Shown: in pieces, positions 9,045-31,153 of the stretch | How the letters are laid out: every line of letters starts with the position of its first letter | Numbering within the stretch: the stretch's first letter is position 1 | Assembly (NCBI GenBank): GCA_017499595.2 | Contig: CM039010.1 | Coordinates: forward strand, 868,001-932,000 | Source: Psilocybe cubensis | Taxonomy: Eukaryota | Reading direction: 5' to 3' | Length of the DNA: 64,000 nucleotides | Notes under the pieces: model-generated | What the model saw: only the letters and a program-made list of their open reading frames with translations | What the model was told of the DNA's origin: nothing | The model's database searches: none | Made by a program: the position numbers and the translations under genes

Positions 9045-9075
<31 letters not shown>

Positions 9076-10481: not shown

Positions 10482-10537
<56 letters not shown>

Positions 10538-12882: not shown

Positions 12883-14034
12883 TGGAGGCGTCGGATCGGA
12901 CTGCGCACGAAGGGATGGTGGTGGAAGCTTCTTGAGTCTGCGCTACACAATGTGCGGGAGTCTATCTACATGGTCACGTGACTAACGACCGAATCCCCTA
13001 GTACATGTTCCCCCGTCCCACAAAAGCAACGTCCGCGTTGCAACAAAAACACAACCCAAAATAAAAAAATGAAAATATACTAACTAGAAATCCCCTTCAA
13101 ACGAGCCTTGACTCGGCGTATGAAGCCTCGAAATCGTGTGGCTGATTTTCCAAAAGACGGAAGACAGAAAGAGCGAACCGGCTTGTAGCTTTGCGAGTGC
13201 AACAAGGGTTTGTCTGAATGCGATTCGGGAACTCGAATTTGTGTGGTAGATAAAACTGTAGTCGAGGTGGGTCTGCTTGGTGGCTGAGAATAGGGAATAC
13301 GGGTGGCTGTCACCAAACCAGATGAGAAGTGCTCGGAAATTGGTGATGGACTGTGGCAACGTTGGAATCGGCGATGAATGGAGCTGAACGGATTGGGAGT
13401 GATTCGGAGGGGTGAATATGGATAGGATTGACCGCCCGTAATAAGAAAGGAGGATCCAATGAACATGGGGTGAGTGGTAGGGCATGCCTCCCTGGCCCAC
13501 CTATTTTTCGGCTTTTTGCTGGCAGATGGAAACTGAGGGGTGGCGGTCTCAGGTAGGAAAGGTGGCGGAAGTGTGGAAGTGAGGGTGGGCGAAACCAAAG
13601 GGCCCGATATACCAGTCAGAGACGCGGGCCCCATGGGTGAAAATTTTTTGAGGGGTCCTAGGACCAGGATCTTGTGATGGTAAGGATACGAAGATGAAGG
13701 GACAGACTGTAGCATTCCAGAACCATATATTCCTGCAGCTCAGTAACCTGTAACCCTCTAACCCGTTTACTGAAACTGAATGCCGAAAACTGTAGACTGA
13801 AAACTGAATGCTGAAAACTGAAACTGAAGACGGAAGGCTGAAGGCGGTACACGGATAGTGCGGCTGGTCTGATACGGCAAGGTCGTGTCGAATTGCTCTG
13901 TTGTCACCATATGGAGGCGTCGGATCGGACTGCGCACGAAGGGATGGTGGTGGAAGCTTCTTGAGTCTGCGCTACACAATGTGCGGGAGTCTATCTACAT
14001 GGTCACGTGACTAACGACCGAATCCCCTAGTACA
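12883..14034 (-). mobile_element. Non-autonomous miniature LTR retroelement (TRIM-like), 1152 bp
   Basis: Two identical 123-bp LTRs (12883-13005, 13912-14034) with TG...CA ends, and a 4-bp TSD CCAC (12879-12882 and 14035-14038). On the minus strand, a PBS TGGTGACAACAGAGCAATTCGA (13909-13888) lies 2 nt from the 5' LTR and a purine-rich GGGACGGGGGAACA abuts the 3' LTR. No gag/pol motifs recognised. Confidence 0.9.
13080..13715 (-). CDS. Hypothetical Pro/Ser-rich ORF inside the LTR element (first ATG ~13634)
   Basis: Open frame of 211 codons in the element's sense orientation, with a basic C-terminus (RFRGFIRRVKARLKG); no recognised domain. Confidence 0.35.
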   Translation of the reverse strand: MLQSVPSSSYPYHHKILVLGPLKKFSPMGPASLTGISGPLVSPTLTSTLPPPFLPETATPQFPSASKKPKNRWAREACPTTHPMFIGSSFLITGGQSYPYSPLRITPNPFSSIHRRFQRCHSPSPISEHFSSGLVTATRIPYSQPPSRPTSTTVLSTTQIRVPESHSDKPLLHSQSYKPVRSFCLPSFGKSATRFRGFIRRVKARLKGISS

Positions 14035-15508
14035 CCACTTTCCACTTGCCACTTTCCGCACGCTTTGAAATCATTTTTTATGTTATCGCAAAAGTATATC
14101 TTCACCCTCCTCGTCGTCATCATCGTCAACATCATCATTTTGGACATACACACATCCTTTTTGCCTTGCTTTGCTTTACATTGGTCCTTGGTCCTCGGTC
14201 CAGTCTCATGCACACATTTCTTATAAGTTACACGCATCACAATTCATATACATCATCGACGCATTTGAAGTACATACATACATGTTACATACATCAGTTA
14301 CTTACGCAGTATGGATGTTTAATTCATTTTCATCCAGGCTGTTGGAAATTCTGACCGGGTAAAATTTGAAAGGTCTGAATCTGGAGTCGAGACGATGTGA
14401 GTTTTGTTACTGTATTAATACATGTGGATCCTCGCTCGCTGGGCAGACGGTCCAGGGATTAAGTGAAATATGCCATCTGGCCACATGGGAGTGTGTTGAG
14501 CTAGTAGTTGCGGGAGGATACCCGAGCTACATACACCTCGGAAAATCACCACCTAAGATCTATAGCGCACACACTGTATAACTTGCGTATCTATGCGCCT
14601 GACGGCTCGCCTTACCTCGAGCCTTGGCTTCCCTTCATTATACTTCGACGACAGCATTTTTTTTTTGTATGTATCGACTTTCCGTGTCTCCCTCTGCTTC
14701 TGCTTCTGCGTCTGTTCTCAGTGGTCAGTGGTCAGTGATAATTAAAGTAGAGACCGCACGAACGACGAGTGACGAGTAAGTGACGAGATTGTACAGGACT
14801 ATAGTACAGCACAGGTGCGCTGGGCTGCGCAGGACTGCACTGGACGGGATGGGATGTGCTAGCTGCTTCGACACGCCACGTCGGATGGGTAACATGGCCT
14901 GACACCACGTACCACGTACCACGTACCACGTAGCTTTCAGCTTGCTAGCTTGCCAGCACAGCACAGATACGGACGGCGGACGGCGGATGGCGGATGGCGG
15001 ACGGCAGCACCACGATTCAGACTAGCCGAATCGCCAGTAAGTCTCACTCTTACTCTCTTCAACGCGGAATTTTTTTTTTCCATACGCAAATCCATACGCA
15101 TATGCGTATGCGTATGCGTATTTTTTCGTTCTTTTCATTTCTTTTGATTTTGATTTTATCTTTTTCCAATTTGAATGTGTTACCCTTTACCCGTCCATTT
15201 ACGTTTCTGCTCCCCAAAAAATCCATTCAAAACCACCAAAACACAAACACCAAGATAGAAAAAAAAAAAAGAAAGTCAGCTACGCTTTTCTCCAAATAAG
15301 AAAAAAAAAGACCGGGGTTGGTCGAAGACTCACAGATTCATGTACATACATACACCCCTCCCCTCCACTCCACTCCACTCCCATTTTTGACATAACATAA
15401 CATAACATAGAAAACCCCGAATCCCCATTCCGACTCCCCTTCCCGAATCCCCATCCCCATCCCACAGCACACCCCCATCCACACCCACAAACCACACCCC
15501 CAAAACAA

Positions 15509-17082
15509 CTATGACTTGCCGCCCTTCTTCTTCGCAGCGGCCTTGGCCTCCTTCTCCTTCTTGGCCTTTTCCTTGGCGGCGTCTTCGATGGCGATCTGGT
15601 GCGCCTTTTCGTTTAGGCCTAGGCGGTTGCGTGCGATCTGGGTGGGTGGGGATGGGATGGGAGGTAGATGGACGGGGGTGCGGAGGTAAGTAGAAGTGGA
15701 AGGTGGGTGGGCGACGCAAAATAGGATAGAAGATAGAATATGGAAAGGGTGTAAGAGGGTGAGGGTGGGAGGGACGGAGGGTGAGGAGAGCGTTCGTTAG
15801 CCTCGCGTATAACAAAACTGATAACCTACACGACGTACCTCATACGCGTAGAACTATTCGAAAAAAAAATCGAATGTTAAACCCAATTCATATCCTACCC
15901 AATCATTCACTCAAATAAAACGCGTACCTGTATCCGGGTAACTGAAATACCAAAAAAAAAAAAGAAAAAGAAAAACAGAGAAACGCGTGAGCAGAATGAT
16001 TCACACTACTCTTTGATGATAATGGAAAGGAAAAGAAAGGAAAAGGGAGGGAAAGATAGATGATAGATGATAGACAAGACATACCGAAGATGGTGTTGGA
16101 CTCGCCGTATTCGTCGCGCGCGTCGGTGCGAATGAGCGAGCCGAAGTTGTAGTCTTTGACTTTGTCCTTGTAGCTGTGGGAAGGGAAGAAGCGGGATCGA
16201 GCAAGTGTGAGTTGAGATTAGATGGTTTGGTCAATGGGATGATAGAGAGTGGGTTGATAAGATTGCGGAGGAAGAAACCTCGAGAGCGATTTGTATACAT
16301 ATTGCCATTGCAGACAGATCAACGGCCGACCATCGCCCACCAAAAAAATCGGGTGTACAAAGGGGGGGTGGGGGGAGAACAGAGCGCGAATTAGACTGGA
16401 ATGACGAACCTCTCGATGAAAGTACGCCAGCGGTTCTTCCCGTCCTTGCTCTTCATCCAGTCTTCGTCGATCTTGACGAGCTTTTCGTATGGCTCCTGGT
16501 TGAGCTCGGGGAACGTAGCCATCAGATGGTCGAAGATCTCGTCATCGTATCTGCACACAAACCATAAGTCTGCCTGTCGAGTCGGGAGGGGAAAGTGGCA
16601 CGAGATGCGAAGAAACTGACTTGGTGAGCTTGAGATCCTTAGGGTTGACTTTTTCGAGGAGGTTCCAGTACGTCTGTTATCAATAAGTATCGTTTGGGAT
16701 AGAGAGAGGAGCGGCGTGTGAGATGAGATGGGTTGGGGTAAGAGAGTGGACGAGCGCCACGTACCTGAGCCTGTTCGACAGCTTTCACAGCGAATCTGCA
16801 GGTGCGCGACGACAGCGACGACGACGAGGGCGCAAAACGAAACGGCGTAAACGAACACGCAGGGTATATGTACGACAAAAACGAAACGATGCGTTCGGGG
16901 GAACACAACTCACTGTTTCTCGATCTGCAACAGAACAGATCAGGACACGTATTCAATCAGAAACAGAAACACGCGCGATTGGACTCCAAGAAAGAAACGG
17001 AATCAATCGCGAAATAAAGGAGAGAGAGCTGACGGACCTCCATGAGATTCTGGGCATTGTTAGGGTCGAATTTGCCAGCCAT
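15509..17082 (-). CDS. PBDC1: PBDC1/YPL225W-family (DUF757) protein, 9 exons
   Basis: Spliced product: MAGKFDPNNAQNLMEIEKQFAVKAVEQAQTYWNLLEKVNPKDLKLTKYDDEIFDHLMATFPE...WRTFIESYKDKVKDYNFGSLIRTDARDEYGESNTIFVTRIQFYAYEIARNRLGLN. It carries the family motifs IEKQFAVKA, DYNFGxL and RIQFYAxEIARNRxGLN. Confidence 0.92.
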
Positions 17083-17332
17083 GGTGCCCGTCGTTGGTTG
17101 TCGGTGTGGTTCAAGTGAGAGGAGAGGCGTTGGGTCAAATTGATGATGATGTGGCAGTTTTCTGAGAGTTGTCGGGGATGCTCCGGGGGCTTATACTTAG
17201 CCTAGTGATACGCCTTTGGAACAAGGTCGACTACAATTTCACACTCATCAATCTGTCGCCATGTGACCTTTTTGCCCACTGTGGGAGTTCATCCTGACCA
17301 TCTTTCGAGGTTAGGGTTCCGCTATGGTTATC

Positions 17333-17930
17333 CTAAGATTGGGCTCATCAGAAACCAGCACCCTTACGTAATCAATGGGCTTGGCGCCAAGAGCGGCCAA
17401 AATCCAGCTCGAAAAAAAAATCAAAAGTTATGTTGACGGAAAATGGTTTCAGACAAAAAGTTTAAAAAAAAAAAATTCATAAATGTGCATATACAATCCT
17501 TACTACTAGCCTTTATGCCCACAATAATAGAATTACACCTCAGAGGTCAAATTGTAGTCTCTGGAAGTCCATAATGAGTCTGAGAGGTATTACTTAGGCG
17601 TGACTTATTGTCACGTGTGGTCACGTGTACCATTATATAAGCGGCCAAAAGAACATTGTCAAATTTTCGAAAATCTCCCAAACTCGAGAAAACACCATTT
17701 CTGACGTGTTAGACTAAAAAAAAAGGAAAAAAATTAAAATCTTTATAACTTCTTGAGATCAAAATTTTTTTGAAAAAAAAAACCACAGATGTGTTCAAAG
17801 AAGCATAACCTACATATCTGTGGTTCAAAAATGTAGAATAGTGTGAGTGCAGAAGGGTTGAAAAGGTTCGGAGGTAAGCCAACTTTTGCTTACCTAAGGG
17901 GGTGCTGGTTCCTGATGAGCCCAATCTTAG
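17333..17930. mobile_element. MITE-like element, ~600 bp, with ~38-bp terminal inverted repeats
   Basis: Left end CTAAGATTGGGCTCATCAGAAACCAGCACCC; reverse complement of right end CTAAGATTGGGCTCATCAGGAACCAGCACCC. AT-rich non-coding interior; TA at 17334-17335 and 17928-17929 could be a Tc1/mariner-type TSD. Confidence 0.8.
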
Positions 17931-19089
17931 TCATTCCATCTTGAAGAGAACCGAACGACCTGCGCAGCGACCCTGCTGGGAATCAGCCATTTTATACCGC
18001 ATGCATGGAGACAGGGCGTGCATATCGGAAAGATGACAAAAAAGATCGCGAGAGATAACGATTCACGGTGAGCGGGCAGGCCTTTCGTCATCGCGGAGGG
18101 CGGCACATCAGCGACAGCCTCAGTTCGTCGTTGCGGATGGATGGGTTCAAGATAGCTCAGAAGAAAGTAAGGATTTTCACTCTTCGGGTGTATGTTCGGA
18201 GCTGATAAGATATTTCTCTAGTTTCCGATCGCACGAGATAGGGGTTATACGTCGAGGTCCACCTCGTTGTGATCAGAAAAACCGCTTCTACGTCGAAAAA
18301 GTAAAGTGCACTCCTCCATATGAGGAGGTATTGGACCCGAGCCATATCCGTATGAAATGTTTCACTAGAACTTCGCAGACGCCACTCGCAAACCTCTGAT
18401 GCTGTGAAATGACTCACGCCGCCCTGAATTGAGAGAAAACACTCACCCCTTGGCTGCCTCGAGGTTGGATCAGGGTAGTCGAGTGATGTCTACTTGACGA
18501 TTGCACCCAATGACTCATAGAAAGAGATCCTGGAGCTTGCGTTTTCTCACAACAAAACGAACGGGTTTCGTCCAAAATGGCCATCGATACGCCCAAGGGT
18601 AAGGTAGCCTAGGCAAGAAGCCTGTTATTCGTGTCAAGAAGTTTTCCTCAACGATACCGGAGCGAGAGATGCAAGCAGTCCAACGCCAGCCTGACCATCG
18701 ACGACGACCTCCCTTTTCACACTGGGATCCAATCAAAACACCGTAAAGCCTCCAAATTTCCGAGGTAATGGTAAGGGAGGAGGAAGAGTCTCGGGCCATC
18801 ACAGAATTTTCAAGAAGGCATTCTAATTCCACCTATACGTGTCGCCGCCCATCGACAACGAGGCACTATCACCTTCCCGTGAGTACCATCTAACCCCCTT
18901 TAATCCATGACGACAACGAAGAACAGGGCACTCCTCTTATCAACCTGTCGCTGATTGCTATCGATCCGTAGAAGCCTCGGTCACACCCACTCCTCTGATA
19001 GTTTTTCCTGAGCACGTCCTGCCTTGAAATCCAAATCTGGAAATTAGTTGCAAGTTCATGGGTGCCATGATGTTGATATGTCGCGAATA

Positions 19090-20048
19090 ATTCGGGGGCC
19101 GGATGTGCCGTTCTTACTCATCTACAACACACAAGTCGAGTGGCACCTTGGGACAACTTGGGAAGAACCAGCACATGCCCCAGGTATAAAGCCCCGTCCA
19201 GCTGGCGTTCATTCTCCACAAACCCCCAAAGCCTGCTATGCGATGAAGACTACATCGCGTCCTTAGAGGACGCTGATTCAATCCTCATCGACATGGCAGC
19301 AGGCCGCAAACAAAGGTGCGTCGTTGTGCCGCTCGTTGTGGCACTCGTACTAACATGCTCTCCACATACACAGGCCTTTACGATCGCTCACCGACGATCG
19401 TACTATCGGCATCGCGCAGCCAAACGGCAGCGCGGTGTCGATAAAGGTCTCCGTCGCTTCGGCGACGTGAGGCACTGCCATCGAGCATACACGCTCGGTG
19501 GCAAAGCTCGATCGACGGCATGGAGCCGTCGACGAGGTCAGTGGTCTCTACGACCACTTTGGCCGGCGCGGCACAACTGCCCGCTGGTCCACTAAGCACC
19601 AAGTGAGTACTTCTTGTCATCGATGGCTTTTCGTGGCTAACTTTCTTCCGCGTCGTGTTCAGACATCGATGAAGTCTATGGCTAACCGTGTGCCTCAAGA
19701 TGTAAGTCCTTGATTTCTATCGTACCACCACTATACTCACTGTATGCCGCCACATCGCTAGGTTCCACAACTATCAAATGAAGACATTATGCGTGCGTCA
19801 AGGTATGTTTCCGTCTTCATCGATGTTCCCGAGATTTTATCTGACCTACCTTCGTTTTATAGATTTCTTTTACTGTGTGCCTCAAATACACGACTGCGAT
19901 GAGATATGTATGGCCCCACGTTGAAGGGGCCATCGACTACTTTGGCCGGCTGTAGTAGAAATAACAGCCGGCCCATTAAGTTTTTGTGAGTATCCCTCCT
20001 TTCCGATATCGTCGACAGCGCTAATCGATAACACTTCCATTCAGATAA
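19090..20048 (+). pseudogene. Multi-exon gene remnant of unknown family, directly upstream of the structured-RNA array (may extend 5' to ~18770)
   Basis: Five GT-AG introns (19316-19373, 19603-19662, 19702-19761, 19803-19862, 19986-20044) join in one frame, broken by in-frame TGA at 19468 and 19900, and ending in TAA at 20046. Confidence 0.6.
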
Positions 20049-20259
20049 TTATCTACTATGCTCGAACGACGCTCTAAAATACCACAGTACGTGAACTGCA
20101 AAATATCCCCACATCCCCACATCATCGATGATTGAACCCTTCTCTAACGAGAAGCAGGTATACAACATCGATTCCCTCCCCCTCCCCCCTCTCCCCCAAA
20201 AAATATACTACTCATCCATTGCCCCCCCATTCCCCAAATCGCCCCTACCCCCTTCTACC

Positions 20260-20482
20260 GTTCCCCAGTCAAGCCTGCCGGGTAGGGCAGGACTTGGCTG
20301 GCAAGGGAGCTCGAGCGGTAATGGCCAGGCCTCTCGCGTTGCCAAGCGCGATTGTAGGCCGGCACTGTTGTTCTCGCAAGAGAACAACAATGGAGTCTCT
20401 GATGGAGACTCACACATCGCTGGATAACAGCGATCACAACCTCTTCGATCCGTGCTCCGAAAGGAGCCCGGTTCAAGTGGGA
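20260..20482 (+). ncRNA. Multi-hairpin structured RNA domain, copy 1 (copies at ~20999-21220 and ~21725-21948)
   Basis: Six consecutive stems, including tgttgttctc-GCAA-gagaacaaca and gctcc-GAAA-ggagc (GNRA tetraloops). G-U pairs form on the + strand and many inter-copy changes preserve pairing. Confidence 0.65.
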
Positions 20483-20491
20483 TTTTTTTTT

Positions 20492-20603
20492 CCGAGGAGA
20501 GGGTGGCTCCCGAGTTGGGAGCCATCCTTGTGCAGCCTTGTCGTGGCTCCTCGGCTTAGGTTGCATCCATCGAAATCGATGGGTGCGACTGACCAATAGC
20601 ACA
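20492..20603 (+). ncRNA. HDV-like (CPEB3-type) self-cleaving ribozyme candidate, copy 1
   Basis: P1 CCGAGGA(20492-98)/TCCTCGG(20548-54); J1/2 hairpin; P2 TGTGCA/T-a-GCACA; P3 GCC/GGC; L3 TTGTCGT; single P1.1 pair G20540-C20555; P4 stem-loop; J4/2 C-C-A-A (20593-96). Confidence 0.7.
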
Positions 20604-21228
20604 TAAAATGATAAGGTCAGTTAATCTCTTGGCCGGCTAGACCAATAGTCACAGCCGGCCTACTACAACCTTGGTGAGTAATACTTGTCGTTCATGGTTT
20701 TACATGCAGTGCTGACCAGCCATCTTTATACGCAGAATGTTATGTGCTATGCTCGAAACACAATGCAATATGCAAATGTACGCGTCAATCATATGTTTCA
20801 ATGATTCGTCTATTGACTCTTCGTTTACAGAAAAAAATAATATGCAAAATATCCCCATATCCCCCCTTCTACTCGATAGTTGAACCCTTCTCTAACGAGA
20901 AGCCGGTATACAACATCGAGTTCCTTCCCCCACCCCCAAAAAATATACTACCCATCCATTTTCCCCCATTCCCCAAATCGCCCCTACCCCATACTACCGT
21001 TCCCCAGTTAAGCCTGCCGGGTAGGGCAGGACTTGGCTGGCAAGGGAGCTCGAGCGGTAATGGCCAGGCGTCTCGCGTTGCAAAGCGCGATCGAAGGCCG
21101 GCACTGTTTTTCTCGCAAGAGAACGACAATGGAGTCTCTGATGGAGACTCACCTATCGCTGGACAACAGCGATCACAACCTCTTCGATCCGTGCTCCGAA
21201 AGGAACACGGTCAAGAGGGATTTTTTTT

Positions 21229-21340
21229 CCGAGGAGAGGGTGGCTCCCGAGTTGGGAGCCATCCTTGTGCAGCCTTGTCGTGGCTCCTCGGCTTAGGCCG
21301 CACCTATCTAAATCGATGGGCGCGACTGACCAATAGCACA
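21229..21340 (+). ncRNA. HDV-like ribozyme candidate, copy 2
   Basis: Core identical to copy 1; substitutions confined to P4. Confidence 0.7.
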
Positions 21341-21956
21341 TAAAATGAACAGGTCAGTTAATCTCTTGGCCGGCTAGAGCAACAGACTCGGCCGGCCTTC
21401 AACAACCTTGGTGAGCATTCATTGTTTGGTCATGATTTTACGTGCAACACTGACTAGCGTCTTTATACACAGAATTTTATGTGCTATGCTCGAAACACAA
21501 TGCAATATGCAAATGTATGTGTCGATATGTGATTTAATGATTTGTCTATTGACTCTTCGTCTACAGAATAAATACTATGAAAAATATTCCCACATCGATT
21601 GCTGAACCCTTCTCTAACGAGAAGCCGGTATACAACATCGAGTCCCCTCCCCCCCCTCTCCCCCAAAAAATATACTACCCATCCATTGCCCCCCATTCCC
21701 ATAATCGCCCCTACCCATTCTACCGTTCCCTAGTCAAGCCTGCCGGGTAGGGCAGGACTTGGCTGGCAAGGGAGCTCGAGCGGTAATGGCCAGGCCTCTC
21801 GCGTTGCAAAGCGCGATCGTAGGCCGGCACTGTTGTTCTTGCAAGAGAACGACAATGGAGTCTCCGAAGGAGACTCACCCAATCGCTGGATAACGGCGAT
21901 CACAACCTCTTCGATCTGTGCTCATTTGGGAGCGCGGTTCAAGAGGGATTTTTTTT

Positions 21957-22068
21957 CCGAGGAGAGGGTGGCTCCCGAGTTGGGAGCCATCCTTGTGCAG
22001 CCTTGTCGTGGCTCCTCGGCTTAGGTCGCATCAATCGAATTCGGTCGATGTGATTGACCAATAGCACA
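21957..22068 (+). ncRNA. HDV-like ribozyme candidate, copy 3
   Basis: Core identical to copy 1; P4 diverged with mostly pairing-preserving changes; repeat homology ends at the P2 3' strand. Confidence 0.7.
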
Positions 22069-22513
22069 AAAACAAATTCATTTGTTCTTCGTTGGTCGCT
22101 CGGTATTGACAGCGTGGTGAGGCTCATATTTACCTTGTTTTACTCTCTGCTAATAATGCCTTCCTTTGTGGTCTCCTATTGTAGATATTCGTTATTAATC
22201 TTGACAGGTAAGCACTTTTTTGGTACCTCTTAGTTACTTAAATGTGTTACCGATGATGATAATGAATTAATACCATTCTTGTCACTTGAACCGTGAACTT
22301 TTGATATATGAATAATCAACTCGTAACGGTCGAGAGTCGGAGACCCGTGTTGGGATCCATTTTTGTTCGCAGTCTCGTTTTGTCGGTAACACGATCTTTG
22401 TGATACGCTTTCGAATCGTCATTTACGAATTACAACTTCAACAAGTCTCTATAACTTGATGTAATCAGCAACATTTACTGATTGCACATCTTTGACAATA
22501 ATATTGGACCACT

Positions 22514-24897
22514 CTAAGTAAAATTTTGTAGATGTTTTCCTTCGAAGGTGTCCCACCAGGTGGACGAGAATGGCAATCCTGCAGAAAAGGCATCGTACTT
22601 AATATAATTTCTACTATGCTGTCGGTCTGCACACAGTCGTCTCTCCAGAACAGAATCAATAATCCCTATATCGATGGTGCGTTTCTTATATTGCAGTATA
22701 GTTTCACGAAGGGAATTAAATGTTTCATCCTTGGAGAGAGGGCCAATGAGCTGTTGAGTATAGCAGACGGTGAGATAGAACAGCAAGCTTGGCTTAGCTT
22801 GATCATCACCCCACGCAGTGACCTCTGTGTCTAACTTCAAGCGAATATAAGAAAATGTGTCGTGAATCATTTCCTTTGTCGCAAGAAAGACTGCCGAAGA
22901 TTCAGAGCTATGGATGGATGGTGAAAGTGTTCGTGAGGTGATATATCCAGATACTTCCAGGTAAAATGGGAGTCCAACTTCCTGTGCAAACGGGGTGTGA
23001 ACCAAAGAATGAGGGTGAAAGTCTTCGCAAATCTGTTTGAAGATGCACAAAGTGAGGTTCGAAAATTGCCAAGAGAGAGCTTCGAATGTGTCTTTGTCAC
23101 GAAAGTCGCGATCCCTGTCAGCCAAGGAAGAGTAAAACACAAAGTTTTGAAACGAGACACATGCGGGAATCCGGATTTTTGTGTGTGATAAATGAAGTTT
23201 GTGCGGTTTTTGATAAAAATAACCAAAGAGTCTTAGAGCGAGCTCTTTTTGATGACGAACGAGCATGCCGCCGTTCCAATGTGTAAAGGATGCTAAATTT
23301 TGTTGATGAAGTATGCAAGTTAAGACATTTGCAGGCAACAATTCCCCCATCTCAATGTCCCTGAACCAACTGGTGGTGTCAAAGAAACTTGTCACGGAGA
23401 CGTTGTCAGGTTCAACCGCTAGCAAGCTGTATAGATAGTCGTTTTCTCGAAGTCCTTCCTGGGGCAAAATCTGGTCAGGGTCCGTCAAATGAAGAAGTAC
23501 AGCTTGCGAAACTTCGGATATACAGTGATACGCCGCATTAGCGACATTATTCTGCCATTTTTGAGAGTTTAGACCGAAAACAATGTCAAAAAGCGGTAAT
23601 AATTCGTCGTGTCCAAATCCAAAGTCATAGGGATTCCCATAGTCCTTGGACCAGTCTCCGAAGGAACGTCGCATGTACATATCGCGAAGTATCACCCAAT
23701 CTTGATCAAACATGTCCCAATTTCCACAACATGCGGCAAGAGACACCTGAGAACGGAATCGAGAGGGCACTGTAAATCTAGAAATCATTTCCGAAATAAA
23801 ATATGCACGAGGAAGACGTGAGATTAGTGATTGGATAGTGAAAAGTGTCGATGATCGGGTCAGATAGAACTGTATACTAAGTAGAGGTGCACAAAGTCTC
23901 CGGACGGCATGTGATTGTGGTGATTTGAACGGACACTGACTAGGCGGATGGGGCCAATTGGATGGGGTGATAAAAAGTGCCATTGTTTGTAGAGTTGGAA
24001 GGATCGTTGTTGTAACGAGGAATAGCAATGATAATCCAATTACGGCGGCCACAGGGATGACCACTGACCAGCGTTCGCTGAAAGCATGAAGAAAGTCAAT
24101 GAGCCCCCCGAGAAAGAGAACCAAAGCAGTTTGTAGGAGAAGTGGCATCACTGTAAATATCCTGTCCACCCGCCATTTCTCGAGCCCATGCTTCCTCATG
24201 TAGAATATTGCGTATTTTTCACGCTGGTCGGAGATGTCTGAGTAGGACTGGTGCTCCCTTAGCCATTGTAAAGAGATAGTGCCCACAAGCACCGTTGTCA
24301 GGCTAAGGACGAGGCTGATGAACCAGAAAACATTGACCCGGATCGTCGACGCAGAAGGCACAAAGGGGTCATTTGAAGACAGGGAAGTGCTAGTGATGAC
24401 GCCGGTGTCATTGTCAAGCCGGGCAGCAATATGGGCAAGCAATGTAATCATAGCACCGCTCGGGTCGGGCTGAAGATCTTTATAGGATTCCACAAGGAAT
24501 GTTGTGACCACAGCCGAGAACAAACCAGCCTTAAAAAAATTCATAGTCATCTATACCATACTCGAAAGATACACAATGCCAACTCACAAAGATGAGCAAA
24601 TTCTGAACCTCATCCTTCCATGCATCACAACGCAGCTTGTCGTCCTTCAGCAGAGGTTCAAGGAGAATTGTCCATGGATCACCGTCTGGTTTTGGAGGCG
24701 CATATTGGAATGGGTCCTCTATGCTCCACATTTTGGGAAGGTCCGAGTTGGTTTCTTGCGGCATGTTCTGAAGAAAGGTACACGTCTGCGTAGCAAGAAC
24801 GAAAAGACAAATATCTCACATTAAGATCATGACGTACTGGTTGTTCATTGGTGCCATTGCGGTCTTGGGGACAGGAGGAATCATCATCGGAAGGCAT
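22514..24897 (-). CDS. DUF6535-domain membrane protein, copy 1 (exons 24897-24820, 24767-24588, 24529-22514)
   Basis: Family-typical CDAWKDEVQNLLIF|AGLFSAVVTTFLVESYKDLQPDP and RVNVFWFISLVLSLTTVLVGTISLQWLREH, hydrophobic helices, then PSQCPFKSPQS. Confidence 0.85.
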
Positions 24898-25255
24898 TGT
24901 GAGTCGTGACGAATGGTTCAAAAAAAAGGAAAAACCGACTGGAAGTTCAGTCGGCGTTAACTGTGGGTCGGAGTTACCTCGGAAGATTAGCACACTGCCT
25001 CCCTGCCATCATGTACTTGGGCTGGGGATTTAACAGAGAAGTCCTGCATCTCCAACTTTTGAACCGTGTTTAATAGCAGACATTGCAAATACCAAGAAGA
25101 ACTGAGTCTCCTGCTGTCGTAAATGAACAGCTCTCATGTCCGTCGCATAGATCGCACTTCTAATCTAAATTCTAATGTGGGCCAGTCACAGTGCGCCTAC
25201 GGGAACTTGCCATTTGAAAACTGAAAATTCGATACCAAGTTTCGTTAATTGACTG

Positions 25256-27764
25256 TTAATCGACAACATTTATTTGTTGGCAATCATCAAATAAAACAGG
25301 GGGTTCTGGACTATAATTGAAACCTTCTGGAGTTTTTCCTTTAAAAGTGTCCCACCAACTGGATGAAAATGGGACGCATATATACTCGTCATCGTACGGA
25401 ATATGGTTGTCGCTGGCATGCTGTCGGCCAGACAGTCGTCTCTCCAAAATGGAATCAATAAGACCTACATCGATGGTGTGTTCCTTATACTGGAGGATGG
25501 TGCCACGATGGGAGATAAAGTTTTCGTCTTTGGAGAGAGGGCCAACTAGCTGTTGGGTATAGCAGGCAGCCAGGTAGAAAAACAAGCTTGGCTTTGGTTG
25601 GGAATCCTTCCAGGACGAGATCTCCATGTCTAAAATTGAAGAAATATAGGTAAATAGGTCACGAAATGTCTGCTTTGTGGCGAGAGAAACTGCCGAGGAT
25701 TCACTTTCATTGTCGATGGAGAAGGAGATGGATGGCGAAAATGTCCGAGCGGTGATATATGCAGCTACTTCAAAATAAAGCGGAAGCCCAAGTTCCTGTG
25801 AAAATGAGTTGTGGACCAAAGAATGAGGATGGAAATCTTCGCAAGCCTGTCTGAAGATGGAAAAGGTGAGGTTGGCAAATTGCCAAGCGAAGGCTTCAAA
25901 GGTGTCCTTGTCACAAAAGTCGTTATCTCGGTCTGCCACGAGATGGTACGATGAGACATTGAAGAAGGATACACTCAAGGGAACTTGAAAGACGTAGTAG
26001 AATGAGAAATTTCTGAAGGAGACGGATACGGGAACCTGACGTTTTGTATGTGATAGTTGTAGTTTGTGCGGTTTCTGATAAAAATAACTAAAAAGACGCA
26101 AGGCGAGCTCTTTTTGATGACGTTGGAAAATACTGCCGCTCCATTCCGTGAATGCTGCTAGGTTTTGTTGATGAAGTATACAAGTTAAGGCCTTTGCGGA
26201 TGACAATTCCCCCTTTCCAACATGGTCAAAGACAGAATCGGTGTCGAAGAAACTTGTTATGGAGACCCTGTCGTGTCCAATAGATGACAAGTTGTACAGG
26301 TAGTTGTTCTCACAGAGGCGGGCCCGAGAAGACAACCGGAGAGTGTTCGTCAGTGGTAGAAGTGCATGTTGCGAAACCTCTGACATACAGTGATAGGCGG
26401 CATCAACAACATCTTCACGCCAGTGCTGATATTTAAGACCGTGGACAATATCAAAAAGTGGCAATCGCTCGTCGCGGCCAAAACCCATGGTATCCATAAA
26501 CCAATAGTATTCTTTGAACCGATTTTCCAAAGAACGCCGCATGTACAAATCACGAATTATCACCCAATCCTTATCGAACATGACCCAAGTTCGACACCAT
26601 GCGGTATAGGTCACTTGAGTCTGGAATTTGGAGGCCATTGTGTAGCTAGAAATCATTTCCGAACTCAAAGATATACGATGAAGACGAGAGATCAGTGATC
26701 GAATAGGGACAAGTACAGATGATTGCCTCAAATAGGACGGTATCTTGAGTAGAGGCGCGCAGATCCGCCGCACGGCATGAGATTGTGGCGATTTAAAGGG
26801 GCACTGACTAGGCGGGTGGAGCGATGTGGACGGGATGATAAAAAGTGCCATTGTCTGTAGAGTCGGGAGGATCGTCGTTGTAACGAGGAATAGCAAAGAT
26901 AATCCAATCACGGCGGCAACAGGAATGACCACCGACCAGCGTTGACTGAAAGCATGCAGAAAGTCTATCAGCCCTCCGAGAAAGAGAACCAAAGCAGACT
27001 GTAGGAGAAGGGGCATCACTGTAAATATCCTGTCCACCCGCCATTTCTCTAGCCCCTCCTTCCTCATGTGAAATATCGCATACTTTTCGCGCGGGTCGGA
27101 GACGTTTGAGTAGGACCGGTGCTCCCTTAGCCATTGTAAAGATATGGTGCCCACGAGCACCGTCGTGAGGCTAAGCACGAGGCTGATGAACCAGAAAACG
27201 TTGACCCGAATTGTCGATGTAGCAGGCACAAAGGTGTTGTCCGAAAAGATGGAAGTACTAGTGATGATGCTGGTGTCATTGTCAAGCCGGGCAGCGATGT
27301 GTGCAAGCAAAGCAATCATAGTATCATTTGGGTCTGCCTGAAGGTCCTTATAGGATTCCACAAGAAAAGTCGTGACCACGGCAGAGAACAGACCAGCCTT
27401 AAAACAACAGTTCTTGACATCTATACCATACTCGAAATATAATGCTAACTTACAAAAATGAGCAAATTCTGAACCTCGTCTTTCCATGCATCACAACGGA
27501 GCTTGTCACTCTTCAGCAGAGGTTCAAGGAGAATTGACCATGGATCACCGTCTGGTTTTGGAGGCGCATATTGGAATGGGTCCTCTATGTTCCACATTTT
27601 GGGAAGGTCCGAGTTGGTTTCTTCCGGCATGTTCTGAAGAAAGGTACACGTCTGCGTTGAGAACGAAAAGACAGAGATCTCACATGAAGATCATGACGTT
27701 CTGGTTGTTGATTGGTGCTATTGCGGTCTTGGGAGAAGGAGGAATCATCAACGGATGGCATCAT
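25256..27764 (-). CDS. DUF6535-domain membrane protein, copy 2
   Basis: Same three-exon structure and motifs as copy 1; starts MMPSVDDSSFSQD. Confidence 0.85.
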
Positions 27765-28116
27765 GAGTCGTGAGGAATGGTTCACAAAAAAAGAACCAAC
27801 TGGAAGTTCAGTCGGCGTTAACTGTGGGTCGGAGTTACCTCGGAAGATTAGCACACTGCCTCCCTGCCATCATGTACTTGGGCTGGGGATTTAACAGAGA
27901 AGTCCTGCATCTCCAACTTTTGAACCGTGTTTAATAGCAGACATTGCAAATACCAAGAAGAACTGAGTCTCCTGCTGTCGTAAATGAACAGCTCTCATGT
28001 CCGTCGCATAGATCGCACTTCTAATCTAAATTCTAATGTGGGCCAGTCACAGTGCGCCTACGGGAACTTGCCATTTGAAAACTGAAAATTCGATACCAAG
28101 TTTCGTTAATTGACTG

Positions 28117-30625
28117 TTAATCGACAACATTTATTTGTTGGCAATCATCAAATAAAACAGGGGGTTCTGGACTATAATTGAAACCTTCTGGAGTTTTTCC
28201 TTTAAAAGTGTCCCACCAACTGGATGAAAATGGGACGCATATATACTCGTCATCGTACGGAATATGGTTGTCGCTGGCATGCTGTCGGCCAGACAGTCGT
28301 CTCTCCAAAATGGAATCAATAAGACCTACATCGATGGTGTGTTCCTTATACTGGAGGATGGTGCCACGATGGGAGATAAAGTTTTCGTCTTTGGAGAGAG
28401 GGCCAACTAGCTGTTGGGTATAGCAGGCAGCCAGGTAGAAAAACAAGCTTGGCTTTGGTTGGGAATCCTTCCAGGACGAGATCTCCATGTCTAAAATTGA
28501 AGAAATATAGGTAAATAGGTCACGAAATGTCTGCTTTGTGGCGAGAGAAACTGCCGAGGATTCACTTTCATTGTCGATGGAGAAGGAGATGGATGGCGAA
28601 AATGTCCGAGCGGTGATATATGCAGCTACTTCAAAATAAAGCGGAAGCCCAAGTTCCTGTGAAAATGAGTTGTGGACCAAAGAATGAGGATGGAAATCTT
28701 CGCAAGCCTGTCTGAAGATGGAAAAGGTGAGGTTGGCAAATTGCCAAGCGAAGGCTTCAAAGGTGTCCTTGTCACAAAAGTCGTTATCTCGGTCTGCCAC
28801 GAGATGGTACGATGAGACATTGAAGAAGGATACACTCAAGGGAACTTGAAAGACGTAGTAGAATGAGAAATTTCTGAAGGAGACGGATACGGGAACCTGA
28901 CGTTTTGTATGTGATAGTTGTAGTTTGTGCGGTTTCTGATAAAAATAACTAAAAAGACGCAAGGCGAGCTCTTTTTGATGACGTTGGAAAATACTGCCGC
29001 TCCATTCCGTGAATGCTGCTAGGTTTTGTTGATGAAGTATACAAGTTAAGGCCTTTGCGGATGACAATTCCCCCTTTCCAACATGGTCAAAGACAGAATC
29101 GGTGTCGAAGAAACTTGTTATGGAGACCCTGTCGTGTCCAATAGATGACAAGTTGTACAGGTAGTTGTTCTCACAGAGGCGGGCCCGAGAAGACAACCGG
29201 AGAGTGTTCGTCAGTGGTAGAAGTGCATGTTGCGAAACCTCTGACATACAGTGATAGGCGGCATCAACAACATCTTCACGCCAGTGCTGATATTTAAGAC
29301 CGTGGACAATATCAAAAAGTGGCAATCGCTCGTCGCGGCCAAAACCCATGGTATCCATAAACCAATAGTATTCTTTGAACCGATTTTCCAAAGAACGCCG
29401 CATGTACAAATCACGAATTATCACCCAATCCTTATCGAACATGACCCAAGTTCGACACCATGCGGTATAGGTCACTTGAGTCTGGAATTTGGAGGCCATT
29501 GTGTAGCTAGAAATCATTTCCGAACTCAAAGATATACGATGAAGACGAGAGATCAGTGATCGAATAGGGACAAGTACAGATGATTGCCTCAAATAGGACG
29601 GTATCTTGAGTAGAGGCGCGCAGATCCGCCGCACGGCATGAGATTGTGGCGATTTAAAGGGGCACTGACTAGGCGGGTGGAGCGATGTGGACGGGATGAT
29701 AAAAAGTGCCATTGTCTGTAGAGTCGGGAGGATCGTCGTTGTAACGAGGAATAGCAAAGATAATCCAATCACGGCGGCAACAGGAATGACCACCGACCAG
29801 CGTTGACTGAAAGCATGCAGAAAGTCTATCAGCCCTCCGAGAAAGAGAACCAAAGCAGACTGTAGGAGAAGGGGCATCACTGTAAATATCCTGTCCACCC
29901 GCCATTTCTCTAGCCCCTCCTTCCTCATGTGAAATATCGCATACTTTTCGCGCGGGTCGGAGACGTTTGAGTAGGACCGGTGCTCCCTTAGCCATTGTAA
30001 AGATATGGTGCCCACGAGCACCGTCGTGAGGCTAAGCACGAGGCTGATGAACCAGAAAACGTTGACCCGAATTGTCGATGTAGCAGGCACAAAGGTGTTG
30101 TCCGAAAAGATGGAAGTACTAGTGATGATGCTGGTGTCATTGTCAAGCCGGGCAGCGATGTGTGCAAGCAAAGCAATCATAGTATCATTTGGGTCTGCCT
30201 GAAGGTCCTTATAGGATTCCACAAGAAAAGTCGTGACCACGGCAGAGAACAGACCAGCCTTAAAACAACAGTTCTTGACATCTATACCATACTCGAAATA
30301 TAATGCTAACTTACAAAAATGAGCAAATTCTGAACCTCGTCTTTCCATGCATCACAACGGAGCTTGTCACTCTTCAGCAGAGGTTCAAGGAGAATTGACC
30401 ATGGATCACCGTCTGGTTTTGGAGGCGCATATTGGAATGGGTCCTCTATGTTCCACATTTTGGGAAGGTCCGAGTTGGTTTCTTCCGGCATGTTCTGAAG
30501 AAAGGTACACGTCTGCGTTGAGAACGAAAAGACAGAGATCTCACATGAAGATCATGACGTTCTGGTTGTTGATTGGTGCTATTGCGGTCTTGGGAGAAGG
30601 AGGAATCATCAACGGATGGCATCAT
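28117..30625 (-). CDS. DUF6535-domain membrane protein, copy 3 (same translation as copy 2)
   Basis: Translation identical to copy 2. Confidence 0.85.
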
Positions 30626-31153
30626 GAGTCGTGAGGAATGGTTCACAAAAAAAGAACCAACTGGAAGTTCAGTCGGCGTTAACTGTGGGTCGGAGTTACC
30701 TCGGAAGATTAGCACACTGGCCTCTGCCATCATGTACTTGGGCTGGGGATTTAACAAAGAAGTCTGCTATGGGTCATGTTCAAATTTTGAGAGAAAGTAG
30801 CTACCAATTGTCAAGTTCGCAAGAGGAAGGGTCGGATGTGATGATTATTTACAATAAGATTGACAGGGCTTAACTTAGAGCGGAGGAATAGCAAAGGTAT
30901 AAAGTAGATAAGTAACAGCATAATGAGTCACAGCGAGACGTGGGCAACTGATAAAACAACCAAAGAATTTAGACAAAAGCCCCCCAAAAGCAAGAAAATA
31001 GCTGCAGAGATAGCACCAATATAAAGAGCTGAGAGTAGAGATAGGTTGAACAGACGCCTACTTGAAGCCACATCCAACATACCGAGCCGATAGAAATACA
31101 GATGGAAAGGCTTGCAAACTGGAGTACAATCAATGACGAGTTCCGCAAATTTG

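Follow-up and report, generated by a model that had tools for sequence, protein, structure and literature searches.

Tandem HDV-like ribozyme candidates behind structured RNA in a spliced gene of Psilocybe cubensis

The array and its host gene

The window analysed here is a 64-kb stretch of the Psilocybe cubensis genome (CM039010.1, 868,001-932,000; all coordinates below refer to this window, in which position 1 is the first letter). Its + strand carries three direct copies of a single module, spaced 687-748 nt apart and delimited from a repeat listing and blastn: unit 1 (19935..20621), unit 2 (20622..21358) and unit 3 (21359..22072, with an approximate 3' edge). When unit 2 was compared with the whole window by blastn, it recovered unit 3 (86.2% over 731 nt) and unit 1 (90.5% over 528 nt, starting at 20097), just as the original prediction of three direct + strand units had it, and returned no other match below E 0.039. 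TRF does not list the array, because its maximum period is 500. A nearby gene family is likewise in tandem duplication, and two of its copies are ~100% identical.

Every unit follows the same order on the + strand: a hairpin-rich RNA of ~225 nt (20256..20480, 20995..21220 and 21721..21948, delimited by RNAalifold and, in units 2 and 3, by alignment), a run of T residues (T9 at 20483..20491, then T8 at 21221..21228 and 21949..21956), and a 112-nt HDV-like stretch (20492..20603, 21229..21340 and 21957..22068). Eight T residues of the run are invariant in the three units, and each run stands before its ribozyme, the first of them directly 5' of the predicted cut. Homology had been proposed to stop exactly at 22068; the ribozyme-like stretch does end there, but the blastn homology of unit 2 reaches 22072 and unit-like features continue beyond 22068, in the form of a hairpin closure (TGACCAA/TTGGTC) and a short stem that precedes a 5' splice site.

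Older, decayed unit pieces seem to flank the array on both edges. Upstream, the hairpin-rich exon 2 of the host gene (19374..19602, + strand) reads, by local alignment and inspection of the sequence, as a structured-RNA copy in decay: 19494-19519 and 21072-21098 align at a score of 32, where 200 shuffles reached no more than 25, and 19553-19606 resembles the units' stem-loop plus GTGAGT, exon 2 ending in a GC stem-loop and then a 5' splice site. Downstream, 22344..22378 (+ strand) is a possible piece of a decayed fourth ribozyme that would cover the J1/2-P2-P3-L3 region with a mutated core; its local alignment score of 29 exceeds the shuffle maximum obtained with a 121-nt query (26), but the match is marginal because the maximum obtained with a 446-nt query (32) is greater than that score.

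The array is embedded in a longer, multiply spliced gene, as judged from contigs of a relative derived from two runs (X11 and X14) that are RNA-like, their RNA nature being only a guess. These contigs cover the gene from bin 19200-19306 onward, close to a TATAAA box read in the sequence at 19185..19190 (+ strand) that may serve as its promoter, and they display GT..AG joints at eight introns. In the upstream part of the gene these are intron A (19316..19373; X11 joint 19316->19394, with 20 diverged exon letters between) and three 60-nt introns (19603-19662, 19702-19761 and 19803-19862), for which both runs give joints at 19602->19663, 19701->19762 and 19800->19861 (cut +2), and which are separated by microexons of 39-41 nt.

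Within the array, one intron per unit had been predicted, on the same strand as the ribozyme. The introns at 19986..20044 in unit 1 (joint 19980->20045) and 21411..21472 in unit 3 (joint 21409->21473) indeed possess GT..AG borders and are absent from contigs of both runs. The corresponding intron of unit 2 (20674..20735) has the + strand signals (GTGAGT..CTGAC..CAG) and is homologous to the unit 3 intron missing from the RNA-like contigs, but no joint is listed for it in the relative. The expectation of a single intron holds for unit 1, which has a 47-48-column alignment gap at the position in question, but not for units 2 and 3, where a second intron is found at 20778..20830 (GTACGC..TTGAC..CAG) and 21515..21566 (GTATGT..TTGAC..CAG), respectively; the evidence is a joint in an X11 contig that leaves at 21514 and ends at 20831 (21514->20831). 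The unit introns and the ribozymes do share the + strand, and transcription and splicing of the unit on that strand are supported in the relative, with the run type only guessed as RNA.

The further suggestions that each unit represents a ‘last exon’, and that the last ribozyme forms the 3' end of the upstream gene, are not borne out by these contigs. Record 9 of X11 extends from about 22050 across 22068, is spliced at an intron downstream of the array (22117..22184, + strand, GT..AG; joint 22115->22184, cut +1) that follows a short stem and 5' splice site, and runs to 22333. One contig of the relative bridges the T-run|CCGAGG cut site of ribozyme 2 and extends well over 31 letters to either side of it, and the RNA-like contigs are unbroken from the C-rich tract and the TATA-like element of the unit across the structured RNA and the T-run into the ribozyme. 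Either uncleaved or re-joined molecules exist, or DNA is present in the X11 and X14 runs; contigs of this kind reveal neither transcript ends nor cleavage.

Fold and conservation of the ribozyme-like stretches

The core descriptor used for the search specified helices P1 (7 bp), P2 (5 bp) and P3 (3 bp), one Watson-Crick P1.1 pair, U....G. as the pattern of L3, and a J4/2 with C-N-R-A. Over both strands of the window together (128 kb) it matched at three places, and all three matches are the array copies, which satisfy the complete order of the HDV double pseudoknot, P1-(J1/2)-P2-P3-L3-P3'-P1'-P1.1-P4-J4/2-P2'. In ribozyme 1, with a predicted cut at 20491|20492, the helices are P1 (CCGAGGA/TCCTCGG), P2 (TGTGC/GCACA) and P3 (GCC/GGC), with L3 as TTGTCGT, a 13-bp hairpin within J1/2 and a 14-bp hairpin as P4. 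The first U and the sixth G of this L3 correspond to the bases of the reverse wobble pair, the conserved pairing of which is described as an HDV-like feature (PMC3774820, PMC13635239). The J4/2 context is CCAA in each copy (20593-20596, 21330-21333 and 22058-22061), for which a catalytic role is predicted; the candidate catalytic C of ribozyme 1 is 20593 or 20594.

The minimum free energy (MFE) folds of the isolated 112-nt stretches consist of P1, the J1/2 hairpin, P3 and P4, with both P2 strands left unpaired, at -61.9 kcal/mol (z -6.4), -54.9 kcal/mol (z -4.2) and -53.7 kcal/mol (z -4.65) for ribozymes 1, 2 and 3. The same nested helices with free P2 strands reappear in the MFE of a 420-nt context. 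Some features depart from the classic consensus: position +1 is C, in place of the usual HDV-like purine; the cleavage-site pair is C-G (C20492-G20554 and its equivalents) rather than the usual purine-pyrimidine (G.U); and all three matches need a 1-nt spacer between P2 and P3, occupied by A. The Rfam models of the HDV family gave no match at gathering score, nor any at E up to 10 when the search covered 4 kb or 161 nt, and no hammerhead or other Rfam ribozyme was found on either strand; the ribozyme assignment rests on the descriptor, the folding and the conservation pattern.

The loose descriptor by itself is expected to match by chance 0.31 times per window. Across 927 shuffled windows it produced 284 chance matches, among which J1/2 was short or folded in 37 and P4 folded in two, while none combined a folded J1/2 with a folded P4, these stricter thresholds having been set after the candidate had been seen. 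The core is identical across the three copies, without a single difference in 65 positions from P1 to P1.1 and 12 positions of J4/2 and P2 (77 in all), and the P4 hairpin lying between these blocks differs among copies at 6-11 of 35 positions; for comparison, differences number 13-19 in 221 positions of the structured RNA and 7-9 in 84 of the C-rich tract. Because the core is invariant, it offers no covariation among the copies. In P4, six of the eight stem changes between units 1 and 3 retain the pair, as read from the folds. The changes listed in the relative's contig across 21251-21340 comprise two in the J1/2 hairpin, three in P4 and one in P1 (a C>T that turns G-C into G.U), and none listed in P2, P3, L3, P1.1 or J4/2.

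An invariant core on either side of a variable P4 is what selection acting on an HDV core would be expected to leave. Taken with the descriptor, the nested MFE fold and features published for fungal variants, it makes the HDV-like assignment of the original prediction credible. From sequence and fold, we infer that the array ribozymes probably cleave themselves.

Structured RNA and putative off-switch elements

The RNA preceding each T-run has 81 pairs predicted by RNAalifold, and in unit 1 it comprises seven local helices, some of them with GCAA or GAAA loops; the segment from 20254 to 20673 has an MFE of -208.1 kcal/mol (z -10.9). No Rfam family matches the structured RNA. Among changes in its stems, eight keep the pair, six pairs contain a broken cell and none is doubly compensated, and the overall change rate is close to that of the C-rich tract. 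The case for a function of this RNA therefore leans mainly on the stability of its predicted fold.

Downstream of the ribozyme core, a hairpin and complements in the microexons could restrain the ribozyme. An alternative hairpin (ACTGACCA..GGTCAGT, 20589..20621, + strand), present in the MFE of 20492-20625 and of 20254-20673, is predicted to sequester J4/2 and to carry the 3' strand of P2 in its loop, and its closure is retained in unit 3 as TGACCAA/TTGGTCG despite a diverged loop. It is followed by a GC stem-loop (GGCCGGC..GCCGGCC, 20631..20660, + strand; repeat family D6, MFE) situated 13 nt before the 5' splice site, with equivalents in unit 1 (19944-19973) and unit 3 (21368-21397). Beyond the first intron, alignment defines a 42-nt microexon in unit 2 (20736..20777) and unit 3 (21473..21514), both on the + strand, identical at 41 of 42 positions, although the introns on either side have diverged at 14 of 61 and 8 of 52 positions. 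Part of the unit 2 microexon (20740-20750) is an 11-nt perfect complement of 20596-20606, which spans J4/2, the P2 3' strand and the tail of ribozyme 1, and part of the unit 3 microexon (21474-21487) is a 14-nt perfect complement of 21333-21346, at the 3' end of ribozyme 2. The latter is the longest perfect complement within 19200-22400, and one of at least 14 nt arose in 1 of 300 shuffled units.

Readings of the array and its known counterparts

The preferred reading, to which a probability of about 0.6 is assigned, is that the array is a single-locus tandem non-coding RNA gene able to process itself: one locus-bound, Pol II-transcribed, multiply spliced Agaricomycete gene (~19.2-22.35 kb) that makes self-cut RNAs and would have grown by tandem duplication of a ~730-bp module. 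Each ribozyme would fold during transcription, forming P1, the J1/2 hairpin, P3 and P4 and afterwards the P2 and P1.1 pseudoknots, and the cut would fall between the last U and C+1. The upstream product would be released with a 3' end made of the structured domain and an oligo(U) tract carrying a 2',3'-cyclic phosphate, and the downstream product would start with a 5'-OH and the folded ribozyme at its head; unit-length RNAs with both kinds of end are a fair prediction. A spliced primary transcript would thereby be divided into two internal pieces of ~615-620 nt (~735 nt unspliced) and two terminal pieces. The downstream complements may limit or shut off the ribozyme after a short window, first through the 7-8-bp hairpin and then through the 11-14-nt microexon stretch.

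A bolder and rather unlikely extension would make the locus an ‘RNA factory’, in which the three HDV-like ribozymes cut one Pol II transcript into defined units of ~615-735 nt. The 5'-OH heads of these units, capped by the ribozyme, and their oligo(U) tails with a 2',3'-cyclic phosphate would recruit U6-type end-binding proteins or be sealed into circles by tRNA ligase, and the conserved microexon, as an anti-ribozyme strand coupled to splicing, would set the extent of cutting. Were this true, a cell would possess, fixed at a single locus, its own HDV-based equivalent of retrozymes and viroid-like RNAs.

It is also unlikely that the array is itself a retrozyme-like element built on an HDV-like ribozyme, with unit-length monomers arising from read-through and being circularised by host tRNA ligase, and the circles then accumulating, or spreading after reverse transcription. 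HDV chemistry, as described in PMC5640933, would lead one to expect monomers with ligatable ends from head-to-tail ribozyme units; the deepest of the locus records shown is a contig of unit length, which measures 766 nt in X11 and 760 nt in X14; and a 10-bp complement, the second base of which covaries, brackets the cut sites (20354-20363/20654-20663 and 21093-21102/21391-21400) and could hold the ends together. However, that contig is better taken as linear and broken at a homopolymer than as a closed cycle, because X11 and X14 agree on the A-run where it begins but differ by 6 nt in its tail, and the circle junction of a tandem array equals read-through sequence, hence contigs cannot reveal circles. 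The copies retain their spliceosomal introns, which argues for DNA duplication rather than passage through spliced RNA. The 64-kb window holds no further copy, and the summed DNA-contig depth in X6 averages ~36 on the array as compared to 31-34.5 on the downstream flank, a weak hint, depth not being copy number. Neither an RT nor an LTR-like frame, a PBS/PPT or a TSD came to light at the locus: Pfam revealed no RT among the eight ORFs of at least 200 aa submitted (17 listed in all), ORFs of at least 120 aa in 7500-19200 have a low-complexity look by eye, and no long conserved ORF is found in the units or after the array, in agreement with the earlier remark that no LINE ORF follows. With no copy elsewhere in the window, retained introns and no hammerhead, LTR-like frame or TSDs, the retrozyme option that was part of the original prediction gains no positive evidence.

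An improbable alternative holds that the structured RNAs are separate small-RNA genes, each preceded at a distance of ~50 nt by a conserved TATA-like element (AAAAATATAC) and closed by the T8-9 run, which would serve as a Pol III-type terminator; the role of the ribozyme would then be only to trim read-through or Pol II precursors to the same U-tailed 3' end. The size of ~225 nt is typical for a small RNA, the invariant T-run directly follows the last hairpin, and all three units carry an identical AAAAAATATACTAC (family D4), which P. cubensis translations retain as KIYY and QKYTT. Set against this, no known Pol III RNA family matches, no tRNA-like gene is present and the B-box-like GGTTCAAG is not retained in unit 2; the unbroken RNA-like contigs, which give no transcript starts, imply at least a long Pol II precursor.

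It is more doubtful again that what resembles a ribozyme is a relic without activity, or a fold that arose by chance in a hairpin-rich repeat, and that the array is a tandemly duplicated lncRNA segment or a non-autonomous retroelement in decay, made uniform by gene conversion. The lack of an Rfam match, the chance expectation for the loose descriptor, the abundance of hairpins across the whole region, the apparently decayed unit pieces at the edges, and the neighbouring gene family, the near-identical copies of which suggest a region prone to duplication and conversion, would all accommodate it. But conversion homogenises a contiguous tract, and here the invariant blocks surround a divergent P4; the combination of folded J1/2 and folded P4 never occurred among the chance matches; and the departures from the classic consensus are features of experimentally active fungal variants.

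Finally, the P. cubensis annotation would have the array code for a repetitive protein, which is scarcely credible. A 221-codon frame does span unit 2 and matches database proteins P0001 (E 1e-51) and P0002, but that frame is open in unit 2 alone (those of units 1 and 3 being broken into pieces in different frames), homologues in P. cubensis are present solely as ‘hypothetical proteins’ of 174 and 188 aa that repeat the translated structured RNA and microexon, P0001 has no Pfam domain on record, a search of 1.84 billion representatives yields that one cluster alone, the two P. cubensis models disagree in exon choice, and the sequence folds as a succession of stable RNA hairpins. The ‘hypothetical protein’ is the array mistranslated, and its annotation implies that RNA genes of this kind are mis-annotated.

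A self-processing non-coding gene, the reading preferred here, would be of interest since variant HDV ribozymes are common in fungi, where the study describing them gives no biological role for them (PMC5640933). The array offers a setting in which to test whether a cellular ribozyme sets the 3' and 5' ends of RNAs, perhaps coupled to splicing, and allows one to ask whether genome-encoded HDV-type repeats yield unit-length or circular RNAs, as hammerhead retrozymes do.

The closest known counterparts are the fungal HDV variants described by Li & Breaker in 2017, with 230 representatives in 26 species, of which those of P. chrysogenum and A. niger cleave in vitro (PMC5640933). Typical of these variants are a C-G pair where cleavage occurs and one additional base that separates P2 from P3; the array shares both features, as well as the nested double pseudoknot, the failure of classic criteria and models to match and its residence in fungal nuclear DNA. 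It differs in that the extra base is A (most commonly C in the variants), that P4 is a plain 13-14-bp hairpin in which the loop E that partly replaces P4 in the variants is not evident, that a 13-bp hairpin is inserted in J1/2, and that the host is an Agaricomycete, the portion of the published species list consulted naming Ascomycota only. The main text of that report describes ‘widely variable gene associations’ and does not use the word ‘tandem’.

The ribozyme of L1Tc (from Trypanosoma cruzi) and the R2-type 5' ribozymes of non-LTR retrotransposons likewise adopt an HDV-like fold and cut at their own 5' edge, so releasing the RNA downstream from a longer co-transcript (PMC3185411, PMC3774820). 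L1TcRz is described as cutting before C1, which pairs with G37, and as having a one-pair P1.1 (PMC3185411), and R2 ribozymes are reported to tolerate long J1/2 insertions and a variable P4 (PMC3774820). Unlike these elements, the array has no RT or endonuclease ORF, no poly(A)/3' UTR module and no dispersed copies in the window, and its units, which contain spliceosomal introns, all belong to one spliced host gene. With retrozymes and hammerhead satellites, as described in PMC6765202 and PMC11721086, it shares tandem ribozyme repeats on the same strand, and cleavage of the read-through transcripts of such repeats would leave unit-length RNAs that bear a 5'-OH and a 2',3'-cyclic phosphate; it differs in being HDV-like rather than hammerhead, in its three copies at the one locus seen, in its intra-unit introns and in its lack of an LTR-like frame or TSD. 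Finally, the array resembles the CPEB3 type in being a cellular, single-locus HDV-like system in a Pol II unit, where cleavage and splicing may compete; the CPEB3 ribozyme is described as single-copy and lying in an intron of a protein-coding gene (PMC6765202), whereas those of the array lie in exons of a putative non-coding gene, are present three times, and each stand behind a structured RNA and a U-tract.

Anatomy of the array and its candidate ribozyme

Three direct repeat units (u1, u2 and u3) occupy the + strand from 19935 to ~22072, at a spacing between copies of 687-748 nt. By blastn, u2 (20622-21358) is 86.2% identical to u3 over 731 nt and 90.5% identical to u1 over 528 nt, the latter alignment starting at 20097; the same query found no further copy in the 64-kb window below an E value of 0.039. 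TRF reported no tandem repeat for the array, because its longest period (500) is shorter than the unit.

Read along the + strand, u2 begins with a GC stem-loop (GGCCGGC..GCCGGCC, 20631-20660), followed by a 5' splice site and intron 1 (20674-20735), a 42-nt microexon (20736-20777), intron 2 (20778-20830), and then an A-rich stretch, a small hairpin and a C-rich tract with an invariant AAAAAATATACTAC (20831-20994). A structured RNA of ~225 nt with seven local helices (20995-21220) leads into a T8 run (21221-21228), a ribozyme-like stretch of 112 nt (21229-21340) and a hairpin closure (~21341-21358). The minimum free energy (MFE) fold of 20254-20673 has a beads-on-a-string shape (-208.1 kcal/mol, z -10.9). 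Rfam returned no family for the ribozyme or the structured RNA, either at the gathering score or at E values up to 10, with queries of 64 kb, 4 kb, 161 nt and 271 nt, and ARAGORN found no tRNA-like gene.

The ribozyme-like stretches were located with a descriptor of the HDV core that specified a P1 of 7 bp, a P2 of 5 bp and a P3 of 3 bp (with a P2-P3 spacer of 0-1 nt), an L3 of 7-8 nt that opens with U and has G in sixth position, a single Watson-Crick P1.1 pair, and C-N-R-A in J4/2; J1/2 and P4 were left free up to lengths of 60 and 80 nt, respectively. Scanned on both strands, the window contained three matches: 20492-20603, 21229-21340 and 21957-22068. The bare core is not rare, since 927 shuffled windows yielded 284 matches (0.31 per window). 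Among those chance matches, J1/2 was short or well-folded in 37, P4 was well-folded in two, and none combined both properties, at fold thresholds that were chosen with the candidate already known. Folding of the isolated 112-nt stretches is independent of the descriptor: in all three copies the MFE structure contains P1 (CCGAGGA/UCCUCGG), a 13-bp J1/2 hairpin, P3 (GCC/GGC) around UUGUCGU and a long P4, and leaves exactly UGUGC and GCACA unpaired and available for the P2 pseudoknot. The energies of ribozymes 1, 2 and 3 are -61.9, -54.9 and -53.7 kcal/mol, with z scores of -6.4, -4.2 and -4.65.

The strongest argument for a ribozyme lies in how the three copies have changed relative to one another. 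Pairs of copies differ at 0 of 65 positions from P1 through P1.1 and at 0 of 12 in J4/2 and the P2 3' strand, and at 6-11 of 35 in P4, which lies between these two invariant segments. The corresponding counts are 13-19 of 221 in the structured RNA and 7-9 of 84 in the C-rich tract; between u2 and u3 the introns differ at 14 of 61 and 8 of 52 positions. Conversion would not spare P4, and so an invariant core around a varied P4 fits selection on the HDV core. Between u1 and u3, pairing is preserved in six of eight P4 stem changes, as read from the folds. A contig from a relative, compared with 21251-21340, changes only the J1/2 hairpin (two positions), P1 (one, from G-C to G.U) and P4 (three), in a listing that excludes changes near the ends of contig pieces. 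The ribozyme is probably genuine.

Transcription, splicing and the extent of the array

Among sequencing runs, none recorded as RNA contained the stretch; evidence for splicing comes from contigs of two runs, X11 and X14, whose kind was guessed as RNA and which derive from a relative ~90% alike (compared at 80% likeness). Upstream of the array, intron-less joints connect 19316 to 19394, 19602 to 19663, 19701 to 19762 and 19800 to 19861 (cut +2); within the units they connect 19980 to 20045 and 21409 to 21473. A further joint, from 21514 to 20831, corresponds to intron 2 mapped across units, and one from 22115 to 22184 was found in X11 only. The + strand is therefore transcribed and spliced. 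The original prediction had described three repeats of intron, structured RNA and HDV-like ribozyme; it was largely right, and two of its three introns are directly seen as intron-less joints, with the correction that u2 and u3 carry a second intron. Introns in this region are short, and their signals, as read in the sequence, are of the GTRAGT and CTRAY types. The absence of intron 2 from u1, visible as an alignment gap of 47-48 columns (20045-20100 against 20736-20860 of u2), reflects either loss in u1 or gain in u2 and u3. An additional intron considered before the structured RNA (GTATAC..CCCCAG) was rejected, as the listed joints include none at that position and the main contig reads through it.

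The deepest contig among the records shown for the locus is 766 nt long (760 nt in X14), represents a whole unspliced unit and bridges one T-run/CCGAGG site; uncleaved (or re-joined) molecules, or DNA, must therefore be present. Contigs of this kind are blind to RNA ends. A circular reading of the 766-nt contig was rejected: it has the same A-run head in both runs and tails that lie 6 nt apart, and it is therefore read as linear.

The proposal that the array, and with it the gene, ends exactly at the 3' end of the last ribozyme (22068) does not survive for the gene, since a spliced, RNA-like contig runs on to at least 22333. For the array, apparent unit-like remnants lie on both sides. Upstream, the exon 19374-19602 is a chain of hairpins and ends in the units' stem-loop and GTGAGT, followed by 60-nt introns and microexons of 39-41 nt; its segment 19494-19519 aligns with helix 3 of the structured RNA at a score of 32, where shuffled sequences reached no more than 25. 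Downstream of 22068 the hairpin closure (TGACCAA/TTGGTCG) is retained, the intron 22117-22184 has a short stem in front of its 5' splice site, and 22344-22378 resembles J1/2-P2-P3-L3 with a mutated core, a marginal likeness whose score of 29 compares with shuffle maxima of 26 and 32 for two query lengths. The sharp 3' edge thus probably marks the limit of what is well preserved in an older and once longer array.

Several other features of the neighborhood were recorded. A 12-bp perfect complement links the first upstream microexon (19663-19674) with a later intron (19815-19826). Palindromes of the CATCGATG type occur at ~19625, 19664, 19817, 20122 and 20167 and in P4, and their core ATCGAT recurs through the gene. 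Pfam assigns DUF6535 and TIMELESS domains to the ORFs neighboring the array. These domains, the intron signals and the array's only database relatives, two Psilocybe cubensis proteins, place the source of the window in an Agaricomycete close to Psilocybe. Four tandem DUF6535 genes (678-744 codons, period ~2.86 kb) occupy the minus strand at 22514-33328; two of them (25256-27490 and 28117-30351) share 99-100% identity over the repeat stretches that were compared, so that duplication or conversion has been recent directly beside the RNA array. The TIMELESS domain (E 6e-73) lies in an exon-sized + strand ORF (41466-42341), and an ORF at 44596-45471 is equally long and unrelated to it. The region ~7700-12400 is CT-rich, of low complexity and microsatellite-like (GC skew to -0.195, AT skew to -0.31). 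Several of its frames hold long spurious ORFs, of which one was put through Pfam and had no match.

Mobile-element, promoter and coding readings

The suggestion that the units behave like a retrozyme, yielding monomers through an HDV-like ribozyme, is possible but unsupported. The accompanying statement that no LINE ORF is present holds: no reverse transcriptase match was obtained for the eight long ORFs (of 17 listed) put through Pfam, and the remaining ORFs were judged by eye. A metagenome scan with AGCCTTGTCGTGGCT-gap-ACCAATA returned three loci, all attributable to chance and without blastn homology to the array, and a scan of viral contigs with a 17-mer of the core returned three that appear unrelated by eye, their flanks being high in GC and dissimilar to the ribozyme.

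Reading of the units revealed no convincing or conserved A or B box for Pol III. An invariant AAAAAATATAC in the C-rich tract (20198-20209, 20938-20949 and 21665-21676) lies ~50 nt upstream of each structured RNA and is also retained in P. cubensis translations; together with the T8-9 run at the end of the structured RNA, it could be an internal promoter/terminator pair.

A coding reading is rejected, as the 221-codon frame is open in u2 alone. Searched against 5.8 billion and 1.84 billion proteins, that + frame matched a single cluster of P. cubensis 'hypothetical proteins' (174 and 188 aa), and a minus-frame ORF matched nothing. The two entries concerned (XP_047742155.1 and UniRef A0A8H7XTY4) are different gene models that translate homologous array; both contain the 5' part of the structured RNA in translated, repeated form, and the second also includes the microexon. 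They are likely mis-annotations of a non-coding locus, but they show that array and microexon have been retained in another species.

Proposed working and relation to known HDV ribozymes

In the proposed scheme, one Pol II transcript would start after the TATAAA at 19185-19190 and be spliced, and its three ribozymes would cut just 3' of each U8-9 tract (20491|20492, 21228|21229 and 21956|21957). The 5' pieces would then end in structured RNA and oligo(U) with a 2',3'-cyclic phosphate, and the 3' pieces would start with a folded ribozyme bearing a 5'-OH; internal pieces would measure ~615-620 nt when spliced (614 nt computed for one) and ~735 nt when unspliced. Lsm2-8 binds U6 snRNA at a 3' end that is similar to a U-tail carrying a cyclic phosphate, and paired 2',3'-cyclic phosphate and 5'-OH ends are substrates of tRNA ligases; both are possible leads to the fate of the predicted pieces.

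Cleavage might also be timed. When the ribozyme is folded together with the next 22 nt, the MFE structure contains an 8-bp hairpin (ACUGACCA/GGUCAGU) that sequesters J4/2 and places the P2 3' strand in its loop. In addition, J4/2, the P2 3' strand and the tail of ribozyme 2 (21333-21346) form a 14-bp perfect complement with the start of the next microexon (21474-21487), the longest such complement in 19200-22400; its homolog between ribozyme 1 (20596-20606) and the u2 microexon (20740-20750) spans 11 bp. Among 300 shuffled units, complements of at least 14 bp arose in one and of at least 11 bp in 11. RNAduplex pairing of microexon with ribozyme, a weaker result than the count of perfect complements, was equaled in 10 of 500 shuffles for u3 and 73 of 500 for u2. 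The microexon is identical at 41 of 42 positions between u2 and u3, and its flanking introns differ by 15-23%. We infer a possible timing device, in which the ribozyme would be active until first the hairpin and later the microexon captured the P2 and J4/2 strand; such capture could also couple cleavage to splicing. The complementary start of the microexon may act as an anti-ribozyme strand or tie cleavage to splicing.

Each cut site is also bracketed by a 10-bp complement (20354-20363 with 20654-20663; 21093-21102 with 21391-21400), one half of which lies in the structured RNA, on the 3' side of helix 3, and the other in the 3' strand of the GC stem-loop past the ribozyme. The complement covaries at its second base, reading GTA/TAC in one unit and GAA/TTC in the next, and it is absent from the MFE fold of 20254-20673.

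Judged by its sequence, the ribozyme is of a kind already known in fungi. Li & Breaker (PMC5640933) describe 230 fungal HDV variants from 26 species, two of them demonstrated to cleave; these variants pair C with G at the cut site and have one more base between P2 and P3. The array departs from the classic consensus in these same two respects; it shows no evident loop E in P4, which is the third feature given there. L1TcRz (PMC3185411) likewise is cut before C1, paired with G37, and has a single-pair P1.1; in the array candidate the predicted cut precedes a C paired with G, and one P1.1 pair was required by the descriptor. Conserved catalytic-core residues named for HDV-like ribozymes in PMC3774820 and PMC13635239 include the L3 U and G and the J4/2 cytosine. 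The array ribozyme is accordingly filed under the fungal HDV variants, with cleavage predicted. The literature searches returned no description of this array, and its ribozyme may already be listed among the variants of PMC5640933. None of the papers they returned describes the context either: a tandem, intron-bearing, single-locus non-coding RNA gene in which the ribozyme is combined with a U-tract and a complementary microexon.
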